Assembly: GCA_964583975.1 (NCBI GenBank)
Contig: CAZOXU010000007.1
Coordinates: 11,051-75,050 of the forward strand
Source of the DNA: an uncultured Planctomycetales bacterium
Lineage (GTDB): Bacteria > Omnitrophota > Gorgyraeia > Zapsychrales > Fredricksoniimonadaceae
Length of the DNA stretch: 64,000 bases
Direction of reading: 5' to 3'
The position numbers and the translations under genes are program-made. Below are positions 3,915 through 21,029 of this stretch, in pieces. How positions within the stretch are numbered: position 1 is the first letter of the stretch; each line of letters opens with the position of its first letter. A model generated the notes under the pieces. The model was not told where the DNA came from. It ran no database searches and saw only the letters and a program-made list of their open reading frames with translations.

Positions 3915-3997
3915 ACGAATAACTCTAATGGGGGAAGTTAAATTACTGAGCGCTGCTTACAGGATTTGGGAAATCCCTTAAATACAACTAAAAATCT

Positions 3998-4644: not shown

Positions 4645-4651
4645 CTCTTTC

Positions 4652-4690
4652 TTTGCTATAAGAACAATTATTCTTTGTTCTTATAGCAAA
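4652..4690. promoter_or_regulatory. Perfect 16-bp inverted repeat TTTGCTATAAGAACAA-N7-TTGTTCTTATAGCAAA immediately upstream of vapB: candidate antitoxin operator
   Basis: Read directly in sequence, 8 nt upstream of the vapB start. Confidence 0.5.
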
Positions 4691-4864
4691 TATACCATAT
4701 CTTCTTCAAAGAGCAAATATTAATATAACTTTTGAGGAATTATTTTGACTTTCTAAAACTTTAAATTCTGGGGAAGAATTTATTTATTGATGAAACTACA
4801 ATTAATATACTTAAATATTTAAAAATGTCAAGCAATTAAATTGACTTAAAATCAATATTACAAA

Positions 4865-5902
4865 TCACCATTTAAATGCAACACCAGTGCGTTGGCATTG
4901 CTTGCAGATGGACATACTGGTACGGCCCTTTGTCTTCATAAGTTCACGAGTAGCTTGAGCAGCAGGACCATTCCAAATTTCCTTAACGCGAGATTGGTTG
5001 GTTGCGTAAGTTGTATATGGTTTAATATTACTCCAGATCACTCCTTCACAACACTGAAGAACATCACCATTGAAATTAACCTGCATCGCCTTCCACAACC
5101 AATCACAAGACATAGGTAACGTTGATGTAGGCAATGGGGTTTCCTTATCTTCTAACCCCCCACGGGGATTGCCCTGACGAAAACTCAGCATCAAATCATT
5201 GTCTTTGCAGAATTGGCGTATCAAAGGAATTTGATGTTCGTTATATTGATAAGTAATCCAATCAATGAGAATAACCGCATGGGATTTTAATTCTTTTTTT
5301 ATGTTAGTTACCATGCGGATATTATTTTTAAGCTTTTCTACTTCCCCATAACGAATTTGAATGCTGTAAATATCTTGAGTGAAGCCGCCTAATTGGATTT
5401 TGATAAAATCAATGCCAGAGGACAGCAAAGCCCGCGCATTTTCTGGAGTAAATAAAAGACCGTTGGTTGAAATCATGGTCATCACCTTACGCTCGGTTGA
5501 GAATTTGACCAAATCAGCTAAATCTTTATATAGGAGTGGTTCGCCATTAGTGTAGAGCACCGCAATCAGCACGTCTTCTTTGATCTGATCGATGATATCC
5601 TTAGCCATTTCAACAGGCATCTTGCCTTTAGATATGGATCCTAAAGAAGGCTGCTCTGGATTGATGTTATAGATCTTGCCCTTAGCATCACGGCAAAATA
5701 AACATCCGGCATTACATTCATTCCACAATTCTAAACTTAAAATAAAAGGTGAAGCTGCTGATATTTTTGTCTTTAAGAAGTACGAAACTGTGCATACAAC
5801 TACATTCCACATCTTACGAAAAGTAATCTTGCCTATCGAAAGTGCTGTAAAAAATAACCGGATTTTTAAAAGGAAATAGTGATTATGCTTTGGGGTTTTC
5901 AT
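4865..5902 (-). CDS. Radical SAM enzyme with C-terminal SPASM domain
   Basis: CNAGCLFC (CxxxCxxC) cluster, C-terminal Cys-rich CCEGV...CKQCQ SPASM-like region. The ORF-track start at 5983 overlaps the GT2 gene, so the true start is probably an internal Met (5902 or 5812). Confidence 0.7.
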   Translation of the reverse strand: MKTPKHNHYFLLKIRLFFTALSIGKITFRKMWNVVVCTVSYFLKTKISAASPFILSLELWNECNAGCLFCRDAKGKIYNINPEQPSLGSISKGKMPVEMAKDIIDQIKEDVLIAVLYTNGEPLLYKDLADLVKFSTERKVMTMISTNGLLFTPENARALLSSGIDFIKIQLGGFTQDIYSIQIRYGEVEKLKNNIRMVTNIKKELKSHAVILIDWITYQYNEHQIPLIRQFCKDNDLMLSFRQGNPRGGLEDKETPLPTSTLPMSCDWLWKAMQVNFNGDVLQCCEGVIWSNIKPYTTYATNQSRVKEIWNGPAAQATRELMKTKGRTSMSICKQCQRTGVAFKW

Positions 5903-6854
5903 CTTTGAATCCATAAACGGAATTGACGATATAGCGTGGCCGACCCTTGCTTTGCTCATGCACTGAATGCAGATATAAACCAATAGCTCCTAAACAAAAC
6001 AACTGTACTGCACTGACAAATAAAATAACAATCATCAAGGCTGTCCATCCAGGGACAGATTTACCTTGCAGCTTCTCTAAGAGAGCATAAACCATTAAAG
6101 CCACATCAACCAAAATGGTCGCGAAACCACAATAAGAAGCAATTTCTAAAGGTACTGAAGAAAAATTAATCAAAGCAGAATTAAGGAAATTTGAAATTGC
6201 TTTAGGGCCTAAAAAAAAGAATTTTGTTTTACCTGCAAAACGAGGTTGTCGCTCATAATAAATAAACGCTTGTTTAAACCCAATGTGAGCTATTAGCCCA
6301 CGAATCCAAGGGCGAGCCTCCTGCATCGTCAAAAGATGATCAACAACCCTCCTTGATAATAGTTTAAAATCACCCGCCTCTCGAGGTATAGTTACTGATG
6401 AATAGCGATTTAAAATAGCATAACAAATACGAGTCAAAAACATTTTAAATGCAGATTCGCCTAAACGTTTATTACGTACCGTGTGGACAACATCAATTTG
6501 ATCCCCTTCGCTCATAGCTGCCAACATCTGTGGAATCAGTTCTGGAGGGTCCTGCAAATCACAATCCATATATACAACAGCATCCCCTTTGGTACGGGCC
6601 AAACCTGCCATCACACAAACAAACACACCAAAAGTACGCGACATAGTGATAATTTTGATATCGTTATGATTTCTGTCTTGATCAATAAGGATTGCTACAG
6701 ACTGATCGGTAGAGCAGTCATCAACAAAAACAAACTCCCAACCAGAGATTTTTTGATTGTTTTTTAAATCTAAAAGCACCTTGCGGGTTCTGGAGATAAA
6801 CTCAGGCAACACATCTGCTTCATTACGGAAAGAGAATACAAAGGATAAAAACAT
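5883..6854 (-). CDS. GT2 polyprenyl-phosphate sugar transferase (GtrB/ArnC/DPM1-like) with C-terminal TM helices
   Basis: VFVDDCSTDQS and DCDLQDPPE motifs of GT-A family 2. Two C-terminal TM segments as in bactoprenol-P glycosyltransferases. Confidence 0.75.
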   Translation of the reverse strand: MFLSFVFSFRNEADVLPEFISRTRKVLLDLKNNQKISGWEFVFVDDCSTDQSVAILIDQDRNHNDIKIITMSRTFGVFVCVMAGLARTKGDAVVYMDCDLQDPPELIPQMLAAMSEGDQIDVVHTVRNKRLGESAFKMFLTRICYAILNRYSSVTIPREAGDFKLLSRRVVDHLLTMQEARPWIRGLIAHIGFKQAFIYYERQPRFAGKTKFFFLGPKAISNFLNSALINFSSVPLEIASYCGFATILVDVALMVYALLEKLQGKSVPGWTALMIVILFVSAVQLFCLGAIGLYLHSVHEQSKGRPRYIVNSVYGFKDENPKA

Positions 6855-6924
6855 GGGCCTATTGTGTCAAAAATACGCACCATTAACAATAAAAAATTCC
6901 CAATATGGATGTATTATTAAGATT

Positions 6925-8040
6925 CTACTTCCTTCTGTTTCCTCTAGCAAGACCAGTAATCGTCACACCTTTTTGAACAATAAAAAATACCGCAGCTCCA
7001 TTCTTAATATGGATAGCTGGAACCATGTCTTCGGCTTGTCTTTGATAATACTCTGAGAGCTTGCCTGCACTTTGAGCTAAGCCAGAAAATGCTGCAGCTT
7101 TACCTGGACTACCAGTCACTTCCTGCGCACTGTCACCTTGTAGACTCTTATGAGTAGTCACCTGACTGTCAGCAATAGCTTGGGCACCACCTGAAACGAA
7201 CCCGCCCATAAAAGAAAGAGCCAGCTGGCGACCTGTGCTGTAAATAATCTGTCCTTTAATACCCAATTCACCTGACTCATCAGTGACATATCCTAATTCC
7301 TGCTCATTCTCAAAGACATACCCGCTAGGCAATACACTTGAAATCGCTACAATTTGAATCAACGCGCGCTGGGAAACTAAGTCTCCGTAAGCCTTACCTA
7401 ACACAAAAGCTCCTTTTAATGGAACGCGTGATTTATTAGGCCCATAAAAAGCTTCATCTAAAGAAATTAACACTGGCAAAGGATTATTCATATCAGCAGC
7501 CGCATAAACACCAGTCAACAGTGTACCTTTACAAAAACTACCAATGGGTAGATAAACCCAGTCTTCTTGATTAGTTGGGGCAATATTAGCGACTGATAAT
7601 TCCAATGTCCTTTGAGAAGAATTCTTAGTCTGATCGTCATCTTGCTCCTCTAAATGGTTATTAAATTCATCAAATCTTTGCTGCATCCTTACTCCTAAAT
7701 CTTGATCAAGCTTAAGAACACTTTGGACAATTTCTTTTTGAGAATTACTCAGATGATCTGCTGAGGTTTGTATCTTCTTAACCTGATTTTCCATATTCTT
7801 AACCCTATCCTCGAAGTCATAATAATTCTTCTCCAAACGTTCTATATATGCCTGCTGCTCTACCCCTCCAACTGAAATACCAATATCTTTAACCACGCTA
7901 GTTTTTACCATTTCTTTATTTTGGGGCTCAACTTTCTGGCTCAGTATTAAAAATACAAAACCAATAATTAAAAAAATAACTACAATTATAATAATGATAG
8001 GTTGCTTCTTAAGGCTATTTCTAAATTCCTGGATTTTCAT
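6925..8040 (-). CDS. traB: TraB/VirB10-like T4SS inner-membrane to outer-membrane bridge protein
   Basis: N-terminal TM, coiled-coil/charged region, C-terminal beta-rich domain (LPIGSFCKGTLLTGVYAAADMNNPLPVL...). Position between traK-like and traV-like genes. Confidence 0.6.
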   Translation of the reverse strand: MKIQEFRNSLKKQPIIIIIVVIFLIIGFVFLILSQKVEPQNKEMVKTSVVKDIGISVGGVEQQAYIERLEKNYYDFEDRVKNMENQVKKIQTSADHLSNSQKEIVQSVLKLDQDLGVRMQQRFDEFNNHLEEQDDDQTKNSSQRTLELSVANIAPTNQEDWVYLPIGSFCKGTLLTGVYAAADMNNPLPVLISLDEAFYGPNKSRVPLKGAFVLGKAYGDLVSQRALIQIVAISSVLPSGYVFENEQELGYVTDESGELGIKGQIIYSTGRQLALSFMGGFVSGGAQAIADSQVTTHKSLQGDSAQEVTGSPGKAAAFSGLAQSAGKLSEYYQRQAEDMVPAIHIKNGAAVFFIVQKGVTITGLARGNRRK

Positions 8041-8728
8041 TTGTTGCCCTCATGATTACGTAAACCTTAGATGAATCGCCTTCTCGACCTTTTGGAGTAA
8101 GCATATCCCTTTGTGAACTGACTGCTAAAAGATCTGGTAGAGCTATCTGTTCAATCGGAATAATGACAGAATTCTTAGCTAAATTCCTGGCTACTAGTAT
8201 GTATGCTTTCCAATCAGACAATTCATATACCTTATCCACAGTTAACTTGATTTGATCATTGGATAGCAAAACGCTTCCTTGTGCCGGCAACAGGCTTGCT
8301 CCCGCCGGTTCCCGATTCAGCAAAAGGTCTTTCATTAAATCCATCACATCTGAATAATACCCGCCAACTGGACCAGAAGATTGGTTCTTAATGGAACCCG
8401 CCTGTATTTTAATATCATGATTCGATCCTATGCGCAGATTCAGAGGATAGCTGCTACCCGATACGGTGGTTACAAAAATGTCTGATGGAGTTTGGTTCTT
8501 GGGAAGTAAATACACAGAGTTATCCAAAACCTCTACCAAAACAGAATCTGGATCTCCGCCCTTGACGATCTTAGCAACCTTGGCTGGGAATTCCACCTGG
8601 GTAACCTTACCTTCTTCAACCTTAATATCTGTGGGACGTCCTTCATCCTTTAGCGATGCTGCATAAGAATTAAAACTAAAAAATAAGACAAGCATTACTA
8701 CACTAATAATTAATTTATTTAACATCAT
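8021..8728 (-). CDS. traK: TraK-like (VirB9 analogue) periplasmic T4SS protein
   Basis: 235 aa, signal peptide. Size and position between traE-like and traB-like genes as in F. Assignment is by synteny plus composition only. Confidence 0.45.
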   Translation of the reverse strand: MMLNKLIISVVMLVLFFSFNSYAASLKDEGRPTDIKVEEGKVTQVEFPAKVAKIVKGGDPDSVLVEVLDNSVYLLPKNQTPSDIFVTTVSGSSYPLNLRIGSNHDIKIQAGSIKNQSSGPVGGYYSDVMDLMKDLLLNREPAGASLLPAQGSVLLSNDQIKLTVDKVYELSDWKAYILVARNLAKNSVIIPIEQIALPDLLAVSSQRDMLTPKGREGDSSKVYVIMRATNENPGI

Positions 8729-9329
8729 CCATAACCTCCTGATTTACATCGTCAATAATTAAACCGTAGGGATTAAAATCCGTTGGTGGAGTCGGCTTAA
8801 GTCGTATGTGATAAATAGTCCTTTGTAATTTAATCTCTTCCTTACCCATATACACACCTTTATCTCCTTTAATCACCACATTAAAACCTTGCGAATCTTC
8901 GCGTACCTGCGGGTCTTGATTTAATGAAAACAAAGAGGCAATGTTGTTCTCTTTAACCTGCTGAATATCTTTCTTTAATCTGTTGCGTGTTTGATTTAAA
9001 AGCCTCGGCGACATAAAACGTTGAGCCCGCTTATAAACATCCTCTACTGAGGCTGGCGTAAAATTTGTCCAATTAAGTAACCATGAGGCTGAAAACATTA
9101 CCGCTGTCGTTTGAGGAGTATTCTGTGAATAAGCTATACCTGCAGATCCAACGCCTGGCACGTAATAAATTGGCCTAGGTTTTGTAATCATAAAAACTAA
9201 AGCAGCCGTTAAAACCAAAAAACAAAAGCTCATTACCATAAGCATAGCTCCTAACCTGGTATTGAGGAATTCCGATGTAGACCAGCGATCAATGAACTGT
9301 GAACTTTTTGACATAATCGGTTTTTGCAT
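8715..9329 (-). CDS. traE: TraE-like (VirB8 analogue) bitopic T4SS protein
   Basis: Single N-terminal TM then periplasmic domain. C-terminal YHIRLKP...FNPYGLIIDDV resembles the F TraE C-terminus. Synteny supports the call. Confidence 0.5.
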   Translation of the reverse strand: MQKPIMSKSSQFIDRWSTSEFLNTRLGAMLMVMSFCFLVLTAALVFMITKPRPIYYVPGVGSAGIAYSQNTPQTTAVMFSASWLLNWTNFTPASVEDVYKRAQRFMSPRLLNQTRNRLKKDIQQVKENNIASLFSLNQDPQVREDSQGFNVVIKGDKGVYMGKEEIKLQRTIYHIRLKPTPPTDFNPYGLIIDDVNQEVMDDVK

Positions 9330-9603
9330 AAATGCAGTACCTTTGAACTTTCTTAACTGGAGGTATTAGCCCAGGCAAACTAAAACCTTGGTTATATAAC
9401 CAATGCAATAAATAACCTGGTGGCTTATCCTTTTTAAACTCCATTAATGCAAACCACGCGACAATGGTTAAAATTCCAAAAATAAGTGGATTAAAAAACA
9501 AACAACCCAATCCGCCAAACATTCCCAAGAATCCTATATCTTCGATTTCAAGACCAAGAAGTAAAAGAGGTCGATCCAAAGTTCTAGGGCATTTTCGCTT
9601 CAT
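9289..9603 (-). CDS. traL: TraL-like (VirB3 analogue)
   Basis: From internal Met: MKRKCPRTLDRPLLLLGLEIEDIGFLGMFGGLGCLFFNPLIFGILTIVAWFALMEFKKDKPPGYLLHWLYNQG aligns by eye with F TraL (P-x-TL...GLPLDE...FGIKKLKKG...LIYWY). The ORF-track N-terminal extension is treated as spurious. Confidence 0.6.
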   Translation of the reverse strand: MKRKCPRTLDRPLLLLGLEIEDIGFLGMFGGLGCLFFNPLIFGILTIVAWFALMEFKKDKPPGYLLHWLYNQGFSLPGLIPPVKKVQRYCIYAKTDYVKKFTVH

Positions 9604-9613
9604 TTTATTCTCC

Positions 9614-9895
9614 TTAAACTCGTCCAAGCAAAATTGGTAAGAACAACAGAAGCAGAAAAGCCGTTCCGCAACAAAGGGCAGTTTTATGTTTACCCTGTAA
9701 TAAACTTGCAATTCCCACTAACAACACAACAGCTGCCAAAATCTTTATAACTGGCCCTTGTACAATGCTCAGAACCTTATCTGAAAAATCTTTACTAACC
9801 TCTAGTGGATCGTCCGTTGCTGCTATAGCTTTTGAAGCACAGACAAAAAACATTAAAAGTACACCTGATATAAAATTACTAACTTTTAACAACAT
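9614..9895 (-). CDS. Candidate T4SS pilin (TraA/VirB2/TrbC-like)
   Basis: 93 aa. Cleavable signal peptide ending AIAA, then about 68 aa with two hydrophobic helices. First gene of the L-E-K-B block, as traA is in F. Confidence 0.45.
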   Translation of the reverse strand: MLLKVSNFISGVLLMFFVCASKAIAATDDPLEVSKDFSDKVLSIVQGPVIKILAAVVLLVGIASLLQGKHKTALCCGTAFLLLLFLPILLGRV

Positions 9896-9910
9896 ACATT
9901 TCCCCCTTTG

Positions 9911-11089
9911 TTAACGTTTATTAATAATTTGAAAACATTGTCTAAACCCAATAAAACTAAAAATAGGCAGGACACACAATATAAATGCTGACACCGCACT
10001 AAAATATGGATACTCCCAAATACCATAAATTGCGCCAGAATTATGAATTTGAATATGAAAGACCATCATAGAAACATAATGTGCTAAAGCAGCAATTAAA
10101 CCCCAAGATTTAATCCACAAAAATATCTCAAGATAGTGCAACAAAATACTAAAACGATGAAAGATAAGTACTGCAAACATAAAAAAAGGGAAACTCACGT
10201 ATAAACAAAAGTTTACCCATCCATATATATAGAGAAAGAAGCTGTGAACGCCTGTGATCAAAAACCAATACAAATTCTCTTGGCGCGGACGCAATTGCCC
10301 CTGAAAGATACTGTCAAGAATTTGATTATCAATATTGCTAGATGAAATATTAGAATGCTGTAATAATTGCCTGATTTTCATCCATGGCCCTTGAGGATCA
10401 CTAAGTAATTGCAGTAGATTATTCTTTATTTCATCCCACTTTTGCTTCCCTTGTTGTGAATATTGATGAACAATACTCACGCTTCCTGGTGATAATGAAC
10501 GTAAATCATAGGTTGGATTACGATTAGTATAGAAAGCCAGCGCAGGTAAATAATGCGCATAAATAAAATCATTCAAATCTTTCTTTAAGCTTATATCAAT
10601 AATGGGCGTGTTAATAAATTGATTGGCCTGCAATGCGAGCCTCTGAATTCCTAGAGGTTCATCCAGAAAACGAAAATCATCAGCCAACACGTTATCTATA
10701 GCAGAAATTATCCCAATATTCATAGCATCAGCCATCTGTCCAAAATACGACAGGACTAATGGCATAACATTCATAGTAGTTTGAGAATTCTTGACATCTT
10801 GTGTTGATGTATTACTTGTGCCGTAGACTTCCATGACACTTTTAATATGAGGCTCTTGGCGAGAAGGCACTACTATCATCATCCATCCGGCAATACAAAT
10901 AAAAGCAAACACAGCAAAATGCCTGTAATTTGCCTCTCTAGCTGAACGCCAGACGCTGTAGCCAAATCCGATAGCAAAGGCTACAAATCCTAAATGTGAA
11001 GTAAAAAAGAATCTAACAAGGCTTTGCGATACATTTAACCCCCACGCAGATAGCGCAGCATCAATGGGCGTGAAACCAAAAATATCCAT
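9911..11089 (-). CDS. Polytopic membrane protein (2 N-terminal TM, about 200-aa periplasmic loop, 4-5 C-terminal TM), possibly VirB6/TraG-N-like
   Basis: Topology read from hydrophobic segments only. First gene of the tra-like array. Confidence 0.3.
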   Translation of the reverse strand: MDIFGFTPIDAALSAWGLNVSQSLVRFFFTSHLGFVAFAIGFGYSVWRSAREANYRHFAVFAFICIAGWMMIVVPSRQEPHIKSVMEVYGTSNTSTQDVKNSQTTMNVMPLVLSYFGQMADAMNIGIISAIDNVLADDFRFLDEPLGIQRLALQANQFINTPIIDISLKKDLNDFIYAHYLPALAFYTNRNPTYDLRSLSPGSVSIVHQYSQQGKQKWDEIKNNLLQLLSDPQGPWMKIRQLLQHSNISSSNIDNQILDSIFQGQLRPRQENLYWFLITGVHSFFLYIYGWVNFCLYVSFPFFMFAVLIFHRFSILLHYLEIFLWIKSWGLIAALAHYVSMMVFHIQIHNSGAIYGIWEYPYFSAVSAFILCVLPIFSFIGFRQCFQIINKR

Positions 11090-11274: not shown

Positions 11275-11676
11275 CTAACAAATACCTGCATAAGTTCCTG
11301 TTGCTGTACAAACCCAAGAACCAGCGCTACCTGATGTTCTTGATAATTGAACATAATTGGTACCAGAGGCTTGACGAGAGTTAGTTGCCACAATGAGCAC
11401 TGAACTTCCGCCAGGATTAGTAATGACATAACCCCATTTAGGACTGGAAGCAGCTCCACCCAAAAGACAATTGGTAGGAACGAAATCTTTTCCTTGAAGA
11501 CATCCTTCTACCTGTGTTTTCAAAGAAGAAGCATTTGTTAAAGCTTCAGCTGCTTGTGAACGTTCTACGTTAGCAAATAAATTTGGCAATGCAATAGCTG
11601 CCAAAATACCAAGAATAATCAAGACGACGATAATCTCAATAAGTGTAAAACCTGAATTATTACGTATTTTTCTCAT
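11275..11676 (-). CDS. Type IV prepilin / T2SS major pseudopilin (GspG/PilA-like)
   Basis: MRKIRNNSGFTLIEIIVVLIILGILAAIALP: a class III leader with G/FTLIE prepilin-peptidase site and Glu+5. 133 aa. Confidence 0.85.
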   Translation of the reverse strand: MRKIRNNSGFTLIEIIVVLIILGILAAIALPNLFANVERSQAAEALTNASSLKTQVEGCLQGKDFVPTNCLLGGAASSPKWGYVITNPGGSSVLIVATNSRQASGTNYVQLSRTSGSAGSWVCTATGTYAGIC

Positions 11677-11693
11677 TCTATTCTCCTTATTAG

Positions 11694-13817
11694 TTATTTT
11701 GATAATACCATTTTTAACTTCAACGCCCTTTTAGGATCAACTAAAAAGGCCTGCTTATAAGCATTGTCGGCTAATTCATATTGAGCACTAAAAAATAAAA
11801 TTTCTCGCAATCTGATAAGAAGTTCAAAACTTTTACTTTTACTTATCAGTTCAGTTGCAATCTGTTTTGCTTTTTCTATATTATTAGCTCTCAAATATAT
11901 TCTCACTTTATACAACTCAACTACATCATGAACAAAATAATTCTCTTTAACTTGATCTAAAACGTCTATTGCTTTTTGATACTGCTTTTGCTCTTCCAAT
12001 ATACTTATTTTGTATATCGGAATATCTATGGAAAATATATCATACTTTTGAGCTTCGTCAAGGTAAGATAAAGCTTTTTTATAGTCCCCTTGAAACCTAT
12101 GTATGACAGCATAAATGTCTTCTTTTTTGTCACTAAACTGTGGGCTTAAATTAATTTTTTCTGAACTGCTTATTTTATGAAATTTATTTAAAATGTTACC
12201 TTCATGATCTATGTATCCAAAACGTTCTAAATCCTCAAATAAAGCCTCTACATCAACCTCAATTTCATTAAAATCTGAAGCCTTAATTTTCCCTCCTTCA
12301 AGCATAGATATAGTAGCTAAACCCAAATATGCCGACAAAAATGTGGGGTCCGCATCTAACAATTTATTATAATAAAACTTAGCTTCCTTATAATCCCCCT
12401 TCTGAACATATAAAGATCCTAAATTACCGAAAACAAAAAGCTTTCTTTGGGTTTCAAGAAGAGATTTAAAACAATTAATTGAATTGTCAATATTACTAAA
12501 ATTTTGCAAGTATGAACAATAACCAATAGCAGGAAAATCAAAGCCTGGAGTTTCAGCAACCCATTGAGTATAGTAAGAAGCAGGATTATTGAATAATAAA
12601 TTTTGTTTATATGAGAATAAAAACAAAAATGTAGAAAGCAAAACTAACAAGACATAAGGAAACCAGCTTATAAGAAATTTTGTTTTATGTATAAACCATG
12701 AAATAATGGCAAAAAACCCAATATTTGTATAAAAAATCCAATGTGGTTCAAAATAAAAGAATCCCTGACCAAGTATATTATAAGAAGCAGGGGCAGATAA
12801 AACAAAACCAAATGAAAACATCAACCAAAAAAACAACATCTTCTTGTTTTCTCTATAAAACACTACAGAGAAATATAAAAAAACACATAAATAAAAAACA
12901 AACACCCATATCCATTTCCCAGCCATGTATTTATCAACCGACGTCACCCATTGAAGAAAAATATTGTCTGGATAGAATAATTTTGTAATAACCCATCTAA
13001 TTATCCTGGCGTATGCCGCGCAAGCTTCATACCAAGTGATTTTAAAACCTCCAAAAACAGCACCTAAAAGCCCCCCGGAAGTCATGGACAACTTTGAACG
13101 AAAATATAGATAGAATAAAAAGACGCTAAAGAATCCAGAACAAAGAAAAAAACGAAACCTATTAATGGTTATGGTAGCTAAAAAATAAAACAATAAAATT
13201 AGAGGAAATATAAACGCTAACTCATGAAATAAAAGTGTAAAAAGAAAAAGTACCAAATAAAGAAGATACTGGCTCCAATGAAAAAGACCTCTCTCCTTTG
13301 AAATCTTATTAATATAAATAAAGATTAAATTAAAAAATACAATTTGAAGAGACAGATGAAACGCGGTCTTATAATTAACAGCTAAACCATTAAATGGATG
13401 CAAAAGATACAGCAATGCGGATGAGCTAGATATAAAGCGGCTAGAAGTAATTGAAAAAACAAACAGAAAAATACTGTAACAAGCCAAAACGAAAGAAACC
13501 AAACTAACAAATTGATAGGCTACACTATTACTATTAAGCAAAGAAGATTCTATACTAAACAAAAAATGAGTCAGCGGACGATAATACCCCCACCGGTTCT
13601 CAAAATTCTCAAAACCAACACGATCTGTTAAATTAGGAATAAAATCATAAGAAAAGAATTGGGGATTCTGCTTTCTTACATTTAAATAATGATCTGCATC
13701 ATCTATAAAAAATGGATTCTTAAAACTATCCCAGAAATTAAAGACACCAACTAGAATAAGAAGAAAAAAGAAAAGAATCTTGAAATGTTTATTAAAGAAA
13801 TTGGGCAAGCTAAACAT
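11694..13817 (-). CDS. GT-C fold membrane glycosyltransferase (about 11 TM) with C-terminal TPR domain
   Basis: FFIDDADHY acidic motif in the first extracytoplasmic loop, many TM helices over about 430 aa, then TPR-like repeats (GDYKEAKFYYNKLLDADP...). Sits between gspF and the pilin gene. Confidence 0.5.
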   Translation of the reverse strand: MFSLPNFFNKHFKILFFFLLILVGVFNFWDSFKNPFFIDDADHYLNVRKQNPQFFSYDFIPNLTDRVGFENFENRWGYYRPLTHFLFSIESSLLNSNSVAYQFVSLVSFVLACYSIFLFVFSITSSRFISSSSALLYLLHPFNGLAVNYKTAFHLSLQIVFFNLIFIYINKISKERGLFHWSQYLLYLVLFLFTLLFHELAFIFPLILLFYFLATITINRFRFFLCSGFFSVFLFYLYFRSKLSMTSGGLLGAVFGGFKITWYEACAAYARIIRWVITKLFYPDNIFLQWVTSVDKYMAGKWIWVFVFYLCVFLYFSVVFYRENKKMLFFWLMFSFGFVLSAPASYNILGQGFFYFEPHWIFYTNIGFFAIISWFIHKTKFLISWFPYVLLVLLSTFLFLFSYKQNLLFNNPASYYTQWVAETPGFDFPAIGYCSYLQNFSNIDNSINCFKSLLETQRKLFVFGNLGSLYVQKGDYKEAKFYYNKLLDADPTFLSAYLGLATISMLEGGKIKASDFNEIEVDVEALFEDLERFGYIDHEGNILNKFHKISSSEKINLSPQFSDKKEDIYAVIHRFQGDYKKALSYLDEAQKYDIFSIDIPIYKISILEEQKQYQKAIDVLDQVKENYFVHDVVELYKVRIYLRANNIEKAKQIATELISKSKSFELLIRLREILFFSAQYELADNAYKQAFLVDPKRALKLKMVLSK

Positions 13818-15061
13818 TAATGACTAATTCCTCCCCCACCCTGTCCAAGCTTAAACAAAGGAAGGAAGATTGAAATGACAATAACCCCAATAACTCCCGC
13901 CATAAAAACTAACATGACTGGTTCAAAAATAGTACTAAACCTTTTCATCGTGGTTTCCACATGATCTTTATAATATTTAGCTACATGATCAAACATTTTA
14001 GCAAGCTCACCTGTTTCTTCTCCCACCTGAATCATTTGAACAGCCAAGACAGGAAAAAAGCTTTCCTTAACCATTGAAACAGCTAGCCCCTTACCCTCGC
14101 TGACATCTTCACGTATTTTGGCAATCAGATACCCGGCGGTTTGATTTTCAACTAATTTTTGGACAATTTCCAAGGCTAAAACAATAGGAACACCTGAACT
14201 CACTAAAATTGACATCTGAGAAGAGAATCGTTCCATAATAATCAATTTCGTCACATCACCAATAATAGGCAATTGAAATATAATTTGTTCAAACTGTAAG
14301 CTTCCCATGGGGGTCTTAAAATAGCTTCTCAAAATAAAGAATACCCCTGCTACCCCCCCTAAAATATACAAAAAATTTGTTTTAATAAATTTAAAAGTTG
14401 CCAATAGAATCTTGGTCATACCCGGAAGATCTGCATGCATGGATACAAAGATTTCTTCAAATCTGGGCGCCACAAAAAGAGCAAAAAACATAACAGCTCC
14501 AACACTAACAAAAACTAGTATAAGTGGATAGATCATAGCTGATATAACCGTACTCTTAAAAGCTGCCTGCTCTTCCACATGTAAGGCTAGTTTATTTAAA
14601 ACAAGAGGCATTGTTCCAGAAGCCTCCCCTACTTCAATAATAGAAACCCAAAACTGAGAAAAAACCTTCGGATGTTTAGCCAAACTTTCGCTTAGGGATT
14701 TACCAGCCTCAACATCCGTTCGTATCTGTTTGGTTACTTCATGAAATTTCTTACTGCTAATCTGAGAAATACATACATCCAAACTACGCAACAAAGCAAC
14801 CCCAGCTTCCAACATCGTTGCTAATTGTCTAGAAAAAATCAAAAGGTCTTCTAACTTAACGCTATCATGAGTAAACTTCATGGTTGTTGATCGAGCTGCT
14901 ACAACCTGTTCTTTAGTCTTTTCATTCATTAATCCGACTTTAATGATAAAAAGACCTTCGCTTTGCAATCTATCTACCACAGCCTGCTCATTGAAAGCCT
15001 CTATAACATCGGTTTTAACCTTACCTTGAGCATCCCTAGCTGTATAAGTGAACATCGGCAT
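13817..15061 (-). CDS. gspF: T2SS/T4P platform protein GspF/PilC
   Basis: 414 aa, duplicated GspF-type domains with three TM helices. Confidence 0.85.
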   Translation of the reverse strand: MPMFTYTARDAQGKVKTDVIEAFNEQAVVDRLQSEGLFIIKVGLMNEKTKEQVVAARSTTMKFTHDSVKLEDLLIFSRQLATMLEAGVALLRSLDVCISQISSKKFHEVTKQIRTDVEAGKSLSESLAKHPKVFSQFWVSIIEVGEASGTMPLVLNKLALHVEEQAAFKSTVISAMIYPLILVFVSVGAVMFFALFVAPRFEEIFVSMHADLPGMTKILLATFKFIKTNFLYILGGVAGVFFILRSYFKTPMGSLQFEQIIFQLPIIGDVTKLIIMERFSSQMSILVSSGVPIVLALEIVQKLVENQTAGYLIAKIREDVSEGKGLAVSMVKESFFPVLAVQMIQVGEETGELAKMFDHVAKYYKDHVETTMKRFSTIFEPVMLVFMAGVIGVIVISIFLPLFKLGQGGGGISH

Positions 15062-15085: not shown

Positions 15086-16810
15086 CTAACCCGTACTTAA
15101 AGTCGAGCCTAAAATTTCCTCGACACTCGTTAAACCTTCTTCAACTTTTTTCATTCCTGATTCAAACAAGCTATCCATACCATTTTTACGTGCCGCATCT
15201 TTAAGCTCTTCATAGGTGCAGTTTTTAGCTAACATAGAACGAATTTCTTCATTAATATACATTACCTCTGATATAACCATACGTCCCTTATACCCTGTAT
15301 GAGCACATTCATCACAACCCTTAGCTTTATATAGTAAATCTGTTTTGACCTTATAATCTCCCACAACGACGCCATTATTTTCATAAGGTTCTTTACACTT
15401 TGGACAAAGTTTTCTAGCTAATCTTTGACCAATAACCATAACCAATGAGGGCGTCAAAAGATAGTTAGGCACTCCAATATCCATAAGACGCGTCAAGGCT
15501 GATGGAGCATCGTTGGTGTGAAGCGTGCTTAAAACCAAGTGTCCCGTAAGCGCGGCACGCACACAAATCTGCGCTGTTTCCAAATCACGAACTTCACCCA
15601 CCAGCATTATATCAGGATCCTGGCGCAAAAATGCTCTAAGAGCAGAAGCAAAAGTTAAACCAATTTCTGTACGTACGGCCACCTGATTAATACCTTCGAT
15701 TCTAAATTCTACAGGATCCTCTACTGTAACAATATTTTTAGAAACATCTTTAACTTCATTAAGAGCGGCATAAAGGGTAGTTGATTTTCCACTTCCCGTG
15801 GGTCCAGTAACAAAAAATAAACCGTAAGAAGAATCTAAAGCTTTACGAATAAACCCAAGCTGTTTAGCATCAAATCCTAAATTAGCCAGCTCAAGCTTAA
15901 TGGCGCCTTTATCCAAAATACGCATAACAACCTTCTCCCCCCAAATAGTAGGAATGGTTGAAACGCGTAAATCCACCACTCTGTCTTCTAGTTTAGCTGA
16001 AATATTACCATCCTGTGGCAAACGTTTCTCAGCAATATCTAATTTAGCTAGAATTTTTACACGCGAAACAATGGCCAGATGCAAATGGGCTGCTGGAGGT
16101 GGAATCTGATACAACACACCATCAATACGATAACGAATCTCAATCTTATCCTTACCAGGTTCAATATGGATATCACTAGCCTTCTCATCAATAGCCTGAC
16201 GGATAATCAAGTCCACCAATTTAATAACAGGAGCTTCCTCAGCTTTCGCAATAAGACGGTCAATACTTAATTCTGTTTCAGGCTCCCTAGTCAGACTAAC
16301 ATCTACATCTTCTTCTTTTTGATCCGAATAGCTTTTCTGGACTTCTTTACCCAACATGCTATCTTTACCTTGAGAGGTATAGAAATCATTGATAGCTTTA
16401 GTAAGGTCTGTTTTAGTACCAATCACCAAATTTAGATCAAAACCTGTCAGCTTTGATAAATTATCCAACATTAAAAAATCAAGAGGGTCAAAAACAGCAC
16501 ATGTCAAAGCATTCATGTTTTTTGACAAAGGAAGCACCATATGCTTGCGAGCAAAATCATAAGGTACAATTTGTTCAAGATTTTGATCTAACCGAGGTTT
16601 CATTAATTCGGTTTTTTGAGAAGCGTAAGGTATCATAAGCTGCGTGCCAAGAGCCATGGCTAAATCAGCTTCCGTAATCATACCCAACTTAAGCAACACC
16701 TCTCCAATGCGGCCTTTTTGCTGTTTTTGAGCTTCAATAGCCTCTTGCAGCTGGCTTTCAGTGATCAAACCTTGTTTAATGAGTAGTTCACCGAGTTTTA
16801 GGTGTATCAT
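15086..16810 (-). CDS. gspE: T2SS/T4P assembly ATPase GspE/PilB/MshE with N-terminal MshEN domain
   Basis: Walker A GPTGSGKST, Asp box, His box, tetracysteine CPKC...CDEC. The N-terminus carries two tandem 24-aa RLGxxLLxxGLIxxxxLxxALxxQ motifs separated by 5 aa. Confidence 0.9.
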   Translation of the reverse strand: MIHLKLGELLIKQGLITESQLQEAIEAQKQQKGRIGEVLLKLGMITEADLAMALGTQLMIPYASQKTELMKPRLDQNLEQIVPYDFARKHMVLPLSKNMNALTCAVFDPLDFLMLDNLSKLTGFDLNLVIGTKTDLTKAINDFYTSQGKDSMLGKEVQKSYSDQKEEDVDVSLTREPETELSIDRLIAKAEEAPVIKLVDLIIRQAIDEKASDIHIEPGKDKIEIRYRIDGVLYQIPPPAAHLHLAIVSRVKILAKLDIAEKRLPQDGNISAKLEDRVVDLRVSTIPTIWGEKVVMRILDKGAIKLELANLGFDAKQLGFIRKALDSSYGLFFVTGPTGSGKSTTLYAALNEVKDVSKNIVTVEDPVEFRIEGINQVAVRTEIGLTFASALRAFLRQDPDIMLVGEVRDLETAQICVRAALTGHLVLSTLHTNDAPSALTRLMDIGVPNYLLTPSLVMVIGQRLARKLCPKCKEPYENNGVVVGDYKVKTDLLYKAKGCDECAHTGYKGRMVISEVMYINEEIRSMLAKNCTYEELKDAARKNGMDSLFESGMKKVEEGLTSVEEILGSTLSTG

Positions 16811-18337
16811 TTATTTGTTGTTTTTCTCAGTCGAATCAAGCTGCTGATTGACAGCATCCATTTTGAGGGGATCCATACCTTCACGATCGATGCGTTGGGA
16901 TGCTTCCATTGTAAATTTCTTAAGAAGATTATCATTAGCAATCTTAGGAGTAATAAAAATAATTAATTCTCTTTCGGTCTCTATTACACTCTTGTGACGG
17001 AAAGGTCCTCCTATCACTGGCAGGTCGCCCAAAAAGGGTAATTTAGAAATATCGACAATTCTTTGTTTACGCAACAGCCCCCCGATAATCACTGTTTCTC
17101 CATTCTTGACCTTTAATATGGAATCTGTTTTACGTGATTCCACATCAATAACATTAGTTCCATTAACTCTTATTCCAGAATCGCTGGTGTCATCAATCTG
17201 AGGTGAAACTTTTAAGACAATCTCTCCTGTAGTTAAATTAGCTTGCGGAGTGACATCTAACATAACCTTAACAGGCTTAGTTATAGCTGTTTCTGTTTTA
17301 GTGGTCCCTGTGGTACTTGTACTTTCTGTAGCAGAAACACCCACCGTTCGATCTCCACCAACTTCAATATGACCAGTCTGATTATTTAATGTCAAAATCT
17401 TTGGACTAGCTAAACTATGCGTGTCAGCCTGAGATTTTAAAAAATCTAGAGCTGCCGTCATGCCAGAAAAATCAAGAATACCAGGAGTAAATTGTAACGA
17501 ATTAGCAGGTCCCGAATCGCTACCCGAGCTAGATGATCCTGAACCCCCTGATGAACTATCCGATGAATCAGAACCTGATGCTAATTTATAAGGGGCTCCC
17601 CCATTATTCATTTTATTTAAAATAAAATTTTGATTAAAAGGAACCAGGGTCTCTCTAGAACCACCCCTAAACGTAAGAGGCGTTTGCCCATAAAGCACAC
17701 CTATTTTCTCTGAATTCCCCTTAGAAACGTCTAATATTTCCACTTCAATTAAAATTTGCACTACAGGCACATCAAGCTTGGCAATAGTTTCTTCAATTAA
17801 AGGAAATTGTTCAGGAACATCCGAAATGATAAAACTATTTGTCCTAGGATCTTCTTGTAATTTTCCATCTTTGGATTTAATAGCATCTAACGCAGCCTTA
17901 ATGCCTCCTGTTGCATCCTTGCCGTTCATTTTAGAAGTCGACACCGAAGCAAACTTTAGAGGAAAAACCTTTGTAACTGTTTTGTCTTTTTCCTTGGGCT
18001 TAACAATAAAAACGTTGCTATTTGCAGTCATTTCATAAGTTAAATCATTAGCATCTAAGATTTTCTCTAACGCTTCTTCCGTAGGAACTTTTTCTAAAAA
18101 AATTGTTACTTTCTTGTTAGACACTTCTGCCGCTGATATAAAATTTAATCCTGCTTGCTGGGAGAATATTTTTAACACATCAGTTAATGAAGTATCTCTA
18201 GAATTGATTGAAATTTTCTTGGAATAATCAGAATAGATAAAACGATTTTCAATATCTTCCACAGCTGCTACCGATAAAGTAGTAGAAAACATGATCAGGT
18301 ATAACGACATTGCTAGGTAACGAAAATTCATGAACAC
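16811..18337 (-). CDS. gspD: Secretin (GspD/PilQ family), short form
   Basis: 508 aa. Signal peptide, N0-like domain, Ser/Gly/Asp low-complexity linker, C-terminal secretin domain (VIIGGLLRKQ...LPFLGDLPVIGGPF). Confidence 0.85.
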   Translation of the reverse strand: MFMNFRYLAMSLYLIMFSTTLSVAAVEDIENRFIYSDYSKKISINSRDTSLTDVLKIFSQQAGLNFISAAEVSNKKVTIFLEKVPTEEALEKILDANDLTYEMTANSNVFIVKPKEKDKTVTKVFPLKFASVSTSKMNGKDATGGIKAALDAIKSKDGKLQEDPRTNSFIISDVPEQFPLIEETIAKLDVPVVQILIEVEILDVSKGNSEKIGVLYGQTPLTFRGGSRETLVPFNQNFILNKMNNGGAPYKLASGSDSSDSSSGGSGSSSSGSDSGPANSLQFTPGILDFSGMTAALDFLKSQADTHSLASPKILTLNNQTGHIEVGGDRTVGVSATESTSTTGTTKTETAITKPVKVMLDVTPQANLTTGEIVLKVSPQIDDTSDSGIRVNGTNVIDVESRKTDSILKVKNGETVIIGGLLRKQRIVDISKLPFLGDLPVIGGPFRHKSVIETERELIIFITPKIANDNLLKKFTMEASQRIDREGMDPLKMDAVNQQLDSTEKNNK

Positions 18338-18369
18338 TCCACGATCTTGTTAAGAAGTATTATTAAAAA

Positions 18370-18933
18370 TTATTTTATTTCATTTTGCAACAAAAAGCTA
18401 CTGCCATCCTGACTTTTTATTAGGACACCCTTTTGCTCAATTTTTAAAACTTTGACAAACTCAACCTTATCATTTTCAGCGAGATCCAAAACTCCACCAT
18501 CATAAAGAACGCGAGTCTTGGTAAGATTAACATCATGACCAACACCTTTAATCTGTTGATTAATAATAATAAAATAATCTCCTTCGCTCACCACATTATC
18601 ATTAATCACCGCTTGAGGATGCGGGGTGTCTAAAACCAAACAGCTGATTTTAAATTCCTTACTCAAGTCCACTCTGTCAGGCGGCTTGGGTTTTATATCA
18701 ATTGGCTTTGGTGGTTCTGGCGGTTTGACGACAACCTTCTTCTTAGGAATCAGCCTTAAAAATGGATTCTTAGGATCAGACAAGAAGTCATTAATAAGCT
18801 GCTCTTCAGCATCTTTATCTTGTTTGAGTTCAACTGCTTTTTCAGCAACAGCGGCAGACTTTTCTGCAGACCATTTGACAGGAACAAATACAAAACATTG
18901 GAATACTAAAAGTATTATGACTCTTTTAATCAT
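18370..18933 (-). CDS. PilP/GspC-like periplasmic protein with Pro/Lys-rich linker
   Basis: 187 aa, signal peptide, PPEPPKPIDIKPKPP linker, C-terminal beta domain. Immediately upstream of the secretin. Confidence 0.4.
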   Translation of the reverse strand: MIKRVIILLVFQCFVFVPVKWSAEKSAAVAEKAVELKQDKDAEEQLINDFLSDPKNPFLRLIPKKKVVVKPPEPPKPIDIKPKPPDRVDLSKEFKISCLVLDTPHPQAVINDNVVSEGDYFIIINQQIKGVGHDVNLTKTRVLYDGGVLDLAENDKVEFVKVLKIEQKGVLIKSQDGSSFLLQNEIK

Positions 18934-19460
18934 TTTTTAACCTGAACAGAAGTAAGATTAAACTCATAACTAGTTGCTTCTGCATCGGATTCATCCATCG
19001 TTCCCTTCCATTTTTCAATCTTAAATGGATATTTTCCCGTCTCTAGCATATTCATAAAAGAGACCAGATCTTTGAAGTCTTTTATTTTAACTGTTAACAA
19101 TATAGGGGTGACTATGTAATAATCAAATTTTTTAATGTCTCCGGCATTGATTTCAATAATTTCTACGTTATGTTGCAGGGCGTAGTCGGCAATTTTATTA
19201 GTTAAAGCATCAGAAGTAAGGGGCTTAGGTAAAGCAGCGACATAGTCACTAAGTTGCTTTTTAACATTACCCCGCTCTTCAATCACAATATTTTTCTGCT
19301 TTTTTTGCTGAATCTGGCTCTGGTAAGCAGCTGTTTTAGAAGAAAAACTGCCCCACAAAACTATCCCCAATATAAAAAAAGCCAGCACAACGACCACAAC
19401 TAAAATAAGGCTTTTTTTAGCAAGAATATTTTGTAGCGTATTATTCGGATTCGCACTCAT
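18930..19460 (-). CDS. PilO/GspM-like bitopic protein
   Basis: 176 aa, single TM after about 20 aa, periplasmic coiled-coil plus ferredoxin-like region. Operon position. Confidence 0.4.
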   Translation of the reverse strand: MSANPNNTLQNILAKKSLILVVVVVLAFFILGIVLWGSFSSKTAAYQSQIQQKKQKNIVIEERGNVKKQLSDYVAALPKPLTSDALTNKIADYALQHNVEIIEINAGDIKKFDYYIVTPILLTVKIKDFKDLVSFMNMLETGKYPFKIEKWKGTMDESDAEATSYEFNLTSVQVKK

Positions 19461-19466
19461 AGAATC

Positions 19467-21029
19467 TTATAACCCCTGAGAACCGGTAATTGTAAATGTC
19501 GAAACATTTTGACCATCCAATTCTTTTTTCTGCGGAGATGTCGAAGTAAAGGTCATTTCAGAAAAATACTTGCTCTCTCTTAAATTATTCAAGAATTCAC
19601 TAACCTTTCTATATTCGACCCCTTTATCTTTCACATAAATATACCCAGCCAATTCTAAACTTATACGATTATTCGAAAGGGTTGTAATTTTAGCTTCCTG
19701 CAACCATATTCCAGCTGGAACGGCCCTCGTCAAAACTACCACCATTGGCGCCATACGACTACTACTTTGAGACTGAATTTTTTCGTAATTATCTATCTTA
19801 TCTTTATCAGCTTTTATTTCTAATTTAAGCTGTTCGACAGAGAAATTAAGAAAGTCTTGATCTGTCTTAGCCATCTTCTCATTTTGTTTTTTAATAACAT
19901 CTAACTTTTGTTGCCCCAGATAAAAAACGCCTCCCAACAATAAGGAGCACAATAAAGCAGCGACAATAGCAGGTTTAAAATCTTCTAGGGTCAGACCTAA
20001 AAATTGACTAAAATCAAAAGATAAAGCATTAGGGCTTGAACTACTGGTTGCCTGAGGCGCGGCCTTCGCTTCCAAGAAATTAAATGCATTAAACTTTGAA
20101 GAAACCTTATCCAACGAAGAACCCCAAGCGCACACACTATCCATGCCCAAATGTCGCTGCAAACCTACGTTAAGCGAGGGATCTGCAATTCGGACTTTCA
20201 CTGTCAATTCTTCCGTCAAAATACGGGTCAATTCTGGATCAGGAATATCTGTAAGGACTAATACCTCTTTTATTTTTTCTTGGGAAAACTGACTATTGTA
20301 ATAACCAAATGATTTTCTAACCTCCCTTACGAGTTGCGCCCGTACAATATCAGAAGCAGCCTTAGGATCATGCCCTTCCGTCACAGATAAAGCAAAATCT
20401 CTCACAAAGTAAGCAATCCCCTTTTCATAAAAAATAATGTGGACATCATGCTTATTGATATAAACAACAACCGTACTTTGATCAATTTTTAAGAACTTTT
20501 TAGAGATGAGATACTTAGCCAGACTAACTAACGCTGGTTCAAAAATAAATGGCTTACCACCGATTTGCTTGATGATACGTTCATATTTTTCTAACGTCTG
20601 TTTTCGAACAGCATAAAAAATAATTCTCCAGCGTTTTTGATTTCCATCTATTTGAACCACTGGCTGATACATGTAATCCAACAGTTTTAAATCAAAAGGT
20701 AAATATTTCTTGGCTTCATAAAAAACGGCATTATTTAATTCGTTAGTTGTCATCCAAGGAATCACAAAAGAACGTAAAAATATTTCTTCAATAGGAATAG
20801 AAACGCAAACTTGACCAGGATTAATCTTTTCATCTCGAAATACTTTTTGAATATGGCCAACGATCTGTGTTTCAACTACAGTTTCAGAGCCATAGGATGC
20901 ATCTTGGGCAGGACTAAGGATAGAATTTAAAGGGGTAGATAAAACCCTTTGCAATTTATTGCGATTAGAGTTTGTTAAAACAAGGAGCTGATCGGTAAGA
21001 TAAATACCTATTCTATCGAGATTTGCCAT
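19467..21029 (-). CDS. PilM-PilN fusion (GspL-like): cytoplasmic actin-like domain, TM, periplasmic domain
   Basis: 520 aa. N-terminal about 330 aa actin/FtsA-like, TM helix AIVAALLCSLLLGGVFYL, then coiled-coil periplasmic segment. Confidence 0.55.
   Translation of the reverse strand: MANLDRIGIYLTDQLLVLTNSNRNKLQRVLSTPLNSILSPAQDASYGSETVVETQIVGHIQKVFRDEKINPGQVCVSIPIEEIFLRSFVIPWMTTNELNNAVFYEAKKYLPFDLKLLDYMYQPVVQIDGNQKRWRIIFYAVRKQTLEKYERIIKQIGGKPFIFEPALVSLAKYLISKKFLKIDQSTVVVYINKHDVHIIFYEKGIAYFVRDFALSVTEGHDPKAASDIVRAQLVREVRKSFGYYNSQFSQEKIKEVLVLTDIPDPELTRILTEELTVKVRIADPSLNVGLQRHLGMDSVCAWGSSLDKVSSKFNAFNFLEAKAAPQATSSSSPNALSFDFSQFLGLTLEDFKPAIVAALLCSLLLGGVFYLGQQKLDVIKKQNEKMAKTDQDFLNFSVEQLKLEIKADKDKIDNYEKIQSQSSSRMAPMVVVLTRAVPAGIWLQEAKITTLSNNRISLELAGYIYVKDKGVEYRKVSEFLNNLRESKYFSEMTFTSTSPQKKELDGQNVSTFTITGSQGL

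Follow-up and report, generated by a model that had tools for sequence, protein, structure and literature searches.

Organization of the pilus locus

The DNA analysed here is a 64-kb window from an uncultured Omnitrophota bacterium, to whose positions all coordinates refer, and the gene of interest lies on its minus strand within a type IV pilus locus, where it encodes a 707-amino-acid (aa) protein combining a membrane domain of predicted glycosyltransferase C (GT-C) fold with C-terminal tetratricopeptide repeats (TPRs; Table 1). An initial annotation of this DNA had placed the gene between gspF and the major pilin gene, immediately upstream of the latter, and had proposed its product as a candidate pilin glycosyltransferase comparable to TfpW of Pseudomonas. 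The placement was confirmed from the sequence. The open reading frame (ORF) begins with ATG, comprises 707 codons and ends with TAA, and is not a chance ORF, since sequence searches retrieved homologues with E-values of 1e-85 to 1e-169. Direct reading of the sequence revealed a TAATG junction, the last base of the gspF/pilC stop codon (TAA) doubling as the first base of this ATG, and the gene is translationally coupled to gspF. At its other end, 17 nucleotides (nt) separate it from the pilin gene, with the AGGAG of the spacer standing 6 nt ahead of the pilin ATG. Co-transcription with the pilin is plausible, as no terminator-like site was found between the two genes in a promoter/terminator scan that did not rise above chance; scans at or below chance level likewise gave no recognisable promoter between them, and a consensus scan for sigma-54-like sites, below chance overall, gave none upstream of the pilin. 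The pilin carries a prepilin leader, the N-methylation motif GFTLIE and two Cys pairs (C59/C70 and C122/C133). The remaining genes of the pilus machinery, gspF aside, extend upstream of the GT-C/TPR gene on the same strand and span 15086..21029.

Table 1 Features of the pilus locus and of the neighbouring region in the 64-kb window (positions within the window).
Feature	Position	Strand	Evidence and remarks
GT-C/TPR membrane protein gene	11694..13817	-	ORF, translation, homologues, AlphaFold2 models, fold matches
Membrane domain, residues 1-410	12588..13817	-	Model secondary structure; hydrophobicity; positive-inside analysis
FFIDDADHY, residues 36-44, loop EL1	13686..13712	-	D39/D40, candidate catalytic/metal-binding pair (GT-C DDX; TMTC M1)
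TPR domain, predicted periplasmic, residues ~412-705	11703..12584	-	Pfam TPR matches; PDB TPR matches; model
Spacer, GT-C/TPR stop to pilin start	11677..11693	-	17 nt; Shine-Dalgarno AGGAG at 11683-11687
Major type IV pilin	11275..11676	-	133 aa; Pfam N_methyl + Pilin; NCBIfam PilA/GspG-type
GspF/PilC platform protein	13817..15061	-	Pfam T2SSF 2.8e-60; NCBIfam GspF/PilC
MshEN-T2SSE ATPase	15086-16810	-	Pfam
Secretin	16811-18337	-	Pfam
187-aa protein	within pilus operon 15086..21029	-	Between secretin and PilO-like in listed order
PilO-like	18930-19460	-	Pfam
PilM/PilN fusion	19467-21029	-	Pfam
GT2 polyprenyl-phosphate glycosyltransferase-like	5883..6854	-	Pfam/NCBIfam; ArnC/PgfS/DPM1-like
Radical-SAM/SPASM gene	4865-5983		Overlaps the GT2 gene
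PIN/MazE toxin-antitoxin pair	3998-4644		Beside the GT2 module

Membrane topology and fold of the GT-C/TPR protein

A full-length AlphaFold2 model was built from an 81-sequence alignment (predicted local distance difference test score, pLDDT, 88.4; predicted template modelling score, pTM, 0.87), and because the Foldseek search of the PDB with this model was swamped by TPR proteins, a second model was made of residues 1-445 (pLDDT 87.2, pTM 0.90). The models place 11 transmembrane (TM) helices at residues 12-33, 98-124, 127-148, 150-174, 181-197, 199-215, 220-243, 296-323, 325-344, 365-381 and 386-409, in agreement with the approximately 11 helices and C-terminal TPRs first annotated. The periplasmic loops correspond to residues 34-97 (EL1), ~140-149 (EL2), 198-199 (EL3), 244-295 (EL4, which contains an amphipathic helix) and 345-364 (EL5). 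Lys or Arg residues occur in every predicted cytoplasmic loop, namely at the N-terminus and in the turns between TM2/3, 4/5, 6/7, 8/9 and 10/11, and are absent from the short periplasmic loops. This positive-inside distribution fits a predicted topology in which the N-terminus lies inside and the loop bearing the DD pair, the H140-P141 and H198-E199 loops and the TPR domain are periplasmic. The FFIDDADHY motif follows the helix at residues 12-33 and would thus occupy the periplasmic loop after TM1, where the initial annotation had put it.

Pfam TPRs were matched at residues 464-505 and 568-664, and TPR-like helix pairs extend in the model from ~412 to 705. The TPR domain also contains a lineage-specific insertion of ~60 residues (~507-567, nt 12117-12299) that none of the homologues has, acidic and rich in Ser and Lys, with a pLDDT of 55-76.

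When the model of residues 1-445 was compared with the PDB, the top 33 matches were all GT-C enzymes, including PglB, yeast and human STT3, AglB, DPY19, Pmt4, ArnT, Pmt1/Pmt2, EmbB, AftA and GPI mannosyltransferase I (PIG-M-type), with query-normalised TM-scores of up to 0.51 and probabilities of 0.87-1.00. Below these came transporters, with probabilities under 0.15, and no WaaL/Wzy protein (O-antigen ligase/polymerase-type) was among the fold matches. In these models the membrane domain has a GT-C fold, as originally claimed, and resembles neither an O-antigen or enterobacterial common antigen polymerase nor a transporter, the outcomes that the claim had named as adverse to it.

Family membership and conservation of the active site

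The closest relatives were six proteins with 36-58% identity, all metagenomic, and one match stood at 24%; P0007 was reached by single-sequence search (E 1.5e-4, 24% identity over 85%). Scanning with patterns of this subfamily, hereafter type A, detected no relative in GTDB species genomes and added two short loci from metagenomes. A profile of the membrane domain, read against 1.84 billion representatives, recovered 66,448 proteins at E<=1e-3, of which 1,380 reached E<=1e-30, with scores falling steeply past the first few matches (673 to 332 to 260 bits). Matches from the indexed search were 'tetratricopeptide repeat proteins' of 500-750 aa, some with Pfam PMT_2 or TMTC_DUF1736 domains and some named 'protein O-mannosyl-transferase' by JGI. 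PMT_2 was matched by 4 of 30 aligned membrane domains (best 9.6e-12) and TMTC_DUF1736 by 4 (best 4.7e-9). Because some of the profile matches carry these domains, sequence places the 707-aa protein, as a divergent member, in the TMTC-like branch of bacterial proteins (PMT_2/DUF1736 + TPR) within the GT-C/PMT clan, by a link that is transitive since the protein alone matches no Pfam glycosyltransferase model.

Conservation was assessed by column counts on the 81-sequence alignment, in which the wider family of distant homologues (n=75) was set beside type A, using the seven TMTC motifs of Eisenhaber et al. (M1-M7: DD; SHKSYRP; RxD; KE(T/Q)xxT; DW; PxxP; ERxxY; PMC7801869) and the DDX motif defined for TfpW (TfpW preprint). 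Of the 75 distant homologues, all have D39 and 74 have D40, and every type-A member covering the region has both; an acidic DxD, DDx or ExD motif in the first extracytoplasmic loop, typical of GT-C enzymes, is thus present as D39-D40. Type A further keeps Y79-R80-P81, H140 (72/75 in the wider family), P141 (75/75), E199, P283 (74/75), G367 and the Glu of EL5, the latter displaced by one residue (E357). The protein does not reproduce the full TMTC set: M1 is kept, M2 only as YRP, M3 is absent, M4 has its Lys replaced (K198 to His) and its Glu kept, M5 is not recognisable, M6 retains one Pro, and M7 has its Glu displaced by one residue, His for Arg and Phe for Tyr. Polar residues in or near the periplasmic loops are at the same time invariant within type A (H43, N51, H84, N148, K150, H198, K259, E264, R271, Q289, K296 and H359), which suggests, at the level of sequence, a site that was remodelled rather than decayed.

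Linkage to pilin genes and cassette exchange

A pilin gene lies downstream of the type-A gene in 8/8 loci, that is, in the window and in seven others. It follows directly in seven of them (the window, L002/L003, L004, L005 with two tandem pilins, L007, and the P0002 and P0003 contigs), with gaps of 11-81 nt where DNA was available, and in the eighth, the P0006 contig, one 530-aa gene intervenes before two pilins, 1.7 kb downstream. The operon around it is widely shared: its ATPase shares 89% identity with the one encoded in the metagenome-assembled genome (MAG) JBGAJA010000004.1 and 61-79% with those of ~20 other Omnitrophota MAGs, and the order UvrA, large TPR protein, ExbB/D, PilMN, PilO, secretin, ATPase, GspF and pilin is conserved across 22 Omnitrophota loci, whereas the GT-C/TPR gene is not.

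The closest genome, represented by L008, illustrates this difference, its gspE and gspF being 89% and 80% identical to those of the window and the GT-C/TPR protein in the same slot only 26%. DNA homology between the two (75%) extends up to position 13833, inside the last codons of gspF, is missing across the whole enzyme gene, comes back in a 108-nt stretch (11688-11581) at the conserved pilin 5' end, is lost again over the pilin head and resumes at 10240. Since homology is lost over both and kept at the flanks and at the pilin 5' end, the enzyme and the variable pilin head are exchanged together as a cassette in Omnitrophota. The pilin heads of L005 and L007, the type-A neighbours with full sequence, are 45-47% identical to that of the window, and the head of the L008 pilin 31%. 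Cassette exchange of this kind would be in keeping with phages or hosts exerting diversifying selection on the surface of the pilus.

Other GT-C/TPR lineages occupy comparable positions. They stand directly after the first pilin in L010 and L022, and in L008, L010 and L022 alike the distance from a non-A gene to a pilin is at most 350 nt. Pairwise comparison distinguished at least type A, type B (L008/L010), type C (L018/L019) and the L022 type, all with a DD motif and C-terminal TPRs, and several GT-C/TPR lineages have been independently recruited to the pilin-adjacent position. In L008 (12951-17489) a different GT-C/TPR gene stands on each side of the pilin: the upstream one, on the same strand, is type B and the downstream, convergent one encodes a typical TMTC-like protein with FGFVFDD.

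Several further features of these loci were recorded. Three independent type-A metagenome contigs, L002, L003 (end 12114) and L004 (end 12305), stop inside the pilin gene, which fits strain-level variation or multiple pilin copies defeating assembly. Tandem major-pilin genes are common (L005 1812-2668; L026 13337-14367; L019, L022 and L027), and in L005 most of the difference between the two copies falls in the loop enclosed by the first pair of Cys residues. Over the segment 12001-14000, which coincides with the enzyme gene, G+C falls to its minimum for the window (0.305) and AT skew reaches its maximum (0.234); the gene's richness in Phe, Leu and Ile codons could account for this, or the cassette could be of foreign origin.

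Proposed function and alternative explanations

Our preferred interpretation, to which we assign a probability of roughly 0.55, is that the protein is a TfpW-like, pilin-directed GT-C O-glycosyltransferase of a distinct and unusually altered lineage. It builds on what the analysis showed of the fold class and topology, of the conserved motifs, of the linkage to the pilin gene and of the exchange as a cassette; catalytic activity, a lipid-linked donor, the pilin as acceptor, an O-linkage and the corresponding biological role are inferred. The central proposal of the initial annotation is therefore retained as regards the GT-C fold, the DD motif, the TPR domain and the pilin linkage, and abandoned as regards the nearby GT2 gene. 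In the proposed mechanism, the 11-helix domain would bind a polyprenyl-phosphate-linked sugar at the periplasmic face, with the GT2 enzymes of the genome as candidate suppliers, and D39/D40 of periplasmic loop 1 would act in catalysis. The periplasmic TPR domain would hold the acceptor, the membrane-anchored pilin from the next gene, and the sugar would be transferred to Ser/Thr of the pilin head before its polymerisation by the adjacent machinery. Judged by conservation among the pilins, the segments SSP(K/N)W and R(T/A)SGS are candidate sites of attachment.

A number of observations weigh against this interpretation, foremost among them the substitutions in type A at positions conserved in the wider family: E145 (63/75) is Leu, R153/D155 of the RxD motif are replaced by hydrophobic residues, K198 (71/75) is His, Y276 (73/75) is Val, R359 (56/75) is His and Y362 (69/75) is Phe. 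The lost positions have been modelled as donor or metal ligands in TMTCs (PMC7801869). With these residues replaced, the type-A protein could be inactive or could carry out a different chemistry, and the altered site limits our confidence in an active transferase. The support for the fold is also modest in terms of Foldseek E-values (1.5e-3 at best), PDB sequence searches with the protein and two profiles returned TPR proteins only and no GT-C, and the protein alone passes no Pfam or NCBIfam glycosyltransferase model, matching only TPRs and nothing in its first 440 residues. As to gene context, L026 and about ten other Omnitrophota loci have pilins with no GT-C/TPR gene nearby, the looser co-locations in L018 and L019 (2-4 kb) may be due to chance because Omnitrophota genomes carry many GT-C/TPR paralogues, and the partial L004 pilin is no closer to the window pilin than others. 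Within the 64-kb window no dedicated sugar-biosynthesis or flippase gene was found, and in the closest genome the pair formed by the GT2 and radical-SAM genes lies ~66 kb from the pilus locus, its proximity thus not being conserved.

The wider family is huge and mostly located away from pilins, several GT-C/TPR paralogues are present in Omnitrophota genomes, and the eukaryotic TMTCs act on a domain class instead of on one protein (PMC7801869). These features would suit an active GT-C enzyme with another or broader acceptor, either a general periplasmic O-glycosyltransferase or one directed at another envelope component, that merely resides in the pilus operon. We regard this as unlikely given that every type-A locus is linked to a pilin, that enzyme and pilin head are replaced together between close relatives, and that this position has drawn in GT-C/TPR genes of several unrelated lineages. 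The loss of several donor-binding residues of the wider family bears on another explanation, by which the protein would be a catalytically dead GT-C scaffold serving pilin or pilus assembly or stability through its TPRs, in the manner of TfpY-type proteins or TPR pilotins. TfpY is a pilin accessory gene that promotes assembly and not modification, and the NCBIfam PilW TPR model gave a weak match (23 bits against a cut-off of 154). Pilotins, however, are outer-membrane lipoproteins and not 11-TM proteins, and the retention of the DD pair, H140/P141, E199, P283 and E357, together with the type-A-invariant loop residues H43, H84, N148, K150, H198, K259, E264, R271 and H359, speaks for a remodelled and not a decayed site, and we find a dead scaffold quite improbable.

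A multi-span membrane protein adjoining a pilin is also what TfpO presents, and the protein might accordingly be thought a Wzy_C/O-antigen-ligase-type oligosaccharyltransferase (TfpO/PilO, PglL), a ligase or polymerase, or else an unrelated transporter. Neither a Wzy_C-like Pfam match (at E<=0.01) nor a WaaL/Wzy fold match was obtained for the 707-aa protein, and with transporters at probabilities under 0.15 we give this explanation very little credence.

Sugar supply and neighbouring genes

The initial annotation had combined the GT2 gene, 6 kb away, with the GT-C/TPR gene into a locus-encoded glycosylation route. The GT2 gene is real, its product is ArnC/PgfS/DPM1-like, and it could still be a source of a lipid-linked donor; the locus-encoded route itself was not upheld. 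Together with the radical-SAM/SPASM gene and the PIN/MazE pair, the gene separates TraB from TraC in a set of genes resembling those of F-type conjugation, and its homologues, 56-84% identical in many Omnitrophota genomes, are always followed by the radical-SAM/SPASM gene. Owing to this conjugation-gene setting, its pairing as a core gene and the separation in the closest genome, its nearness to the pilin carries no weight, and from the gene contexts of the homologues we rejected its membership of a dedicated pilin glycosylation locus. The GT2 and radical-SAM/SPASM genes, overlapping or abutting, form a conserved two-gene module that also occurs in L088 (10001-12023), L089 and L090 (10001-12079).

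The region from 28.9 to 52 kb of the window is occupied by lysine/arginine (amino-acid) biosynthesis and housekeeping genes, with no sugar genes, and no genes for D-arabinofuranose (D-Araf) synthesis of the DprE1/DprE2 type were found among the ORFs of the 64-kb window scanned with Pfam. In relatives, sugar-related genes do adjoin the pilins. Downstream of the two pilins of the P0003 contig come genes for a YfhO-family GT-C, a small protein and two DegT aminotransferases, and then for a hexapeptide acetyltransferase, an epimerase/dehydratase and a GT2. In L010 an Acyl_transf_3 gene (membrane O-acyltransferase, 15758-16855) comes directly after the pilin-adjacent GT-C/TPR gene and is compatible with acylation of a glycan.

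The F-type conjugation or type IV secretion system (T4SS)-like set begins directly after the pilin and occupies 1004-11089 on the minus strand, with a 392-aa membrane protein (no Pfam match), TrbC, TraL, TraE, TraK, TraB/TrbI and later TraC. We considered whether it was a recent insertion splitting a glycosylation locus and rejected this, as the set also follows the pilin in L008 (17720-21713), L026 (14668-18828) and the P0006 contig, with 41-65% identity. As no fewer than three related loci in Omnitrophota share it, the set counts as a conserved feature next to the pilus genes. The sole pilus ATPase of the locus bears an N-terminal MshEN domain, a c-di-GMP-binding module, and no PilT-type retraction ATPase was found in the pilus locus.

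Implications

Glycosylation by a pilin-adjacent GT-C/TPR enzyme is already known from TfpW of Pseudomonas, and the points of interest here are the remodelled site, the exchange of the enzyme with the pilin head as a cassette and the repeated recruitment of lineages within one phylum. Omnitrophota are ultra-small, probably host-dependent bacteria whose pilus is thought to be used for host contact, and to our knowledge the bacterial TMTC-like family has almost no assigned substrates. If our interpretation is correct, a TfpW-like solution would exist in an uncultured phylum, built from different lineages of a family with >66,000 representatives, the gene neighbourhood would provide a specific and testable enzyme-substrate pair for a functionally obscure bacterial family, and the surface of the pilus would, judging from the exchange of enzyme and pilin head, be under strong diversifying selection. 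A different mode of donor binding could come to light through the altered active-site residues, and were the protein a pseudo-enzyme, it would represent a new kind of pilin accessory protein.

More tentatively, and with considerably less confidence than we place in the function itself, we envisage that Omnitrophota possess an exchangeable cassette of pilin head and GT-C/TPR enzyme, for which at least three or four independent lineages were recruited and which would give the host-contact pilus of these ultra-small cells a variable sugar coat. The type-A site might then have been rebuilt with histidines (K198H and R359H plus the invariant H43 and H84, with the DD pair kept) for a donor or chemistry unseen in GT-C protein glycosyltransferases, and the pilin might be the first substrate for the TMTC-like family.

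Comparison with known systems

In the papers on Omnitrophota that were consulted, type IVa and Tad pili are mentioned and pilin glycosylation is not. Periplasmic pilin glycosylation from lipid-linked donors is carried out by TfpO/PilO (P. aeruginosa 1244), PglL, PglS and TfpM, some of them encoded beside pilA, but these belong to the Wzy_C/O-antigen-ligase family and not to GT-C, and have no TPRs. The cyanobacterial Ogt (Synpcc7942_0051) is also a TPR-bearing glycosyltransferase encoded beside pilA and needed for pilin glycosylation; it differs in being a soluble GT41 enzyme (GT-B type) with N-terminal TPRs that uses a cytoplasmic nucleotide sugar, and not a membrane GT-C. The TPR pilotins PilF, PilW and Tgl consist of TPRs only, whereas the 707-aa protein has an 11-TM domain.

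With TMTC1-4, the eukaryotic protein O-mannosyltransferases, the protein has in common the architecture of 11 TM helices and a C-terminal TPR domain on the side of the catalytic loop, and it shares four of the seven motifs in part, with the DD of M1, the YRP of M2, the Glu of M4 and the Pro at M6, in addition to a Glu in EL5. It departs from them in having no RxD (M3), in the His that replaces the Lys of M4, in a DW/DUF1736 loop that is not recognisable and in the replaced Arg and Tyr of M7. The proposed donor, a bacterial polyprenyl-phosphate sugar, and the proposed acceptor, a pilin, would be further differences.

The closest functional parallel is TfpW (AAM52060.1), the pilin D-arabinofuranosyl transferase of P. 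aeruginosa group IV (Pa5196/PA7). It is a GT-C protein of 646 aa for which 11 TM helices are predicted; its first periplasmic loop bears a DDX motif, and its C-terminal TPR domain is periplasmic (TfpW preprint). Mutation of the DDX motif abolishes pilin glycosylation, and ArnT was the best modelling template (TfpW preprint). The tfpW gene adjoins the major pilin gene pilA and is part of a strain-variable cassette of pilin and accessory genes. Pilin glycosylation by TfpW protects Pseudomonas against pilus-specific phages. Compared by description, the two proteins share ~11 TM helices, a DD(X) in loop 1, the periplasmic C-terminal TPR domain and a pilin-adjacent gene, an agreement in architecture that goes beyond the parallel first drawn. 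They differ in gene order, the enzyme gene standing upstream of the pilin here and tfpW downstream, and in loop 4, where the YX6PFX7P of TfpW is not present and V276...P283-D284 keeps only the first Pro; nor does the window contain D-Araf pathway genes, and the organism is an Omnitrophota and not a Pseudomonas. The wider TMTC-like family does have YX6P, from Y276 and P283, and this shared motif hints that TfpW may belong to the same superfamily. The cassette-like exchange of enzyme and pilin head in Omnitrophota matches the behaviour described for the pilin/accessory-gene cassettes of P. aeruginosa.

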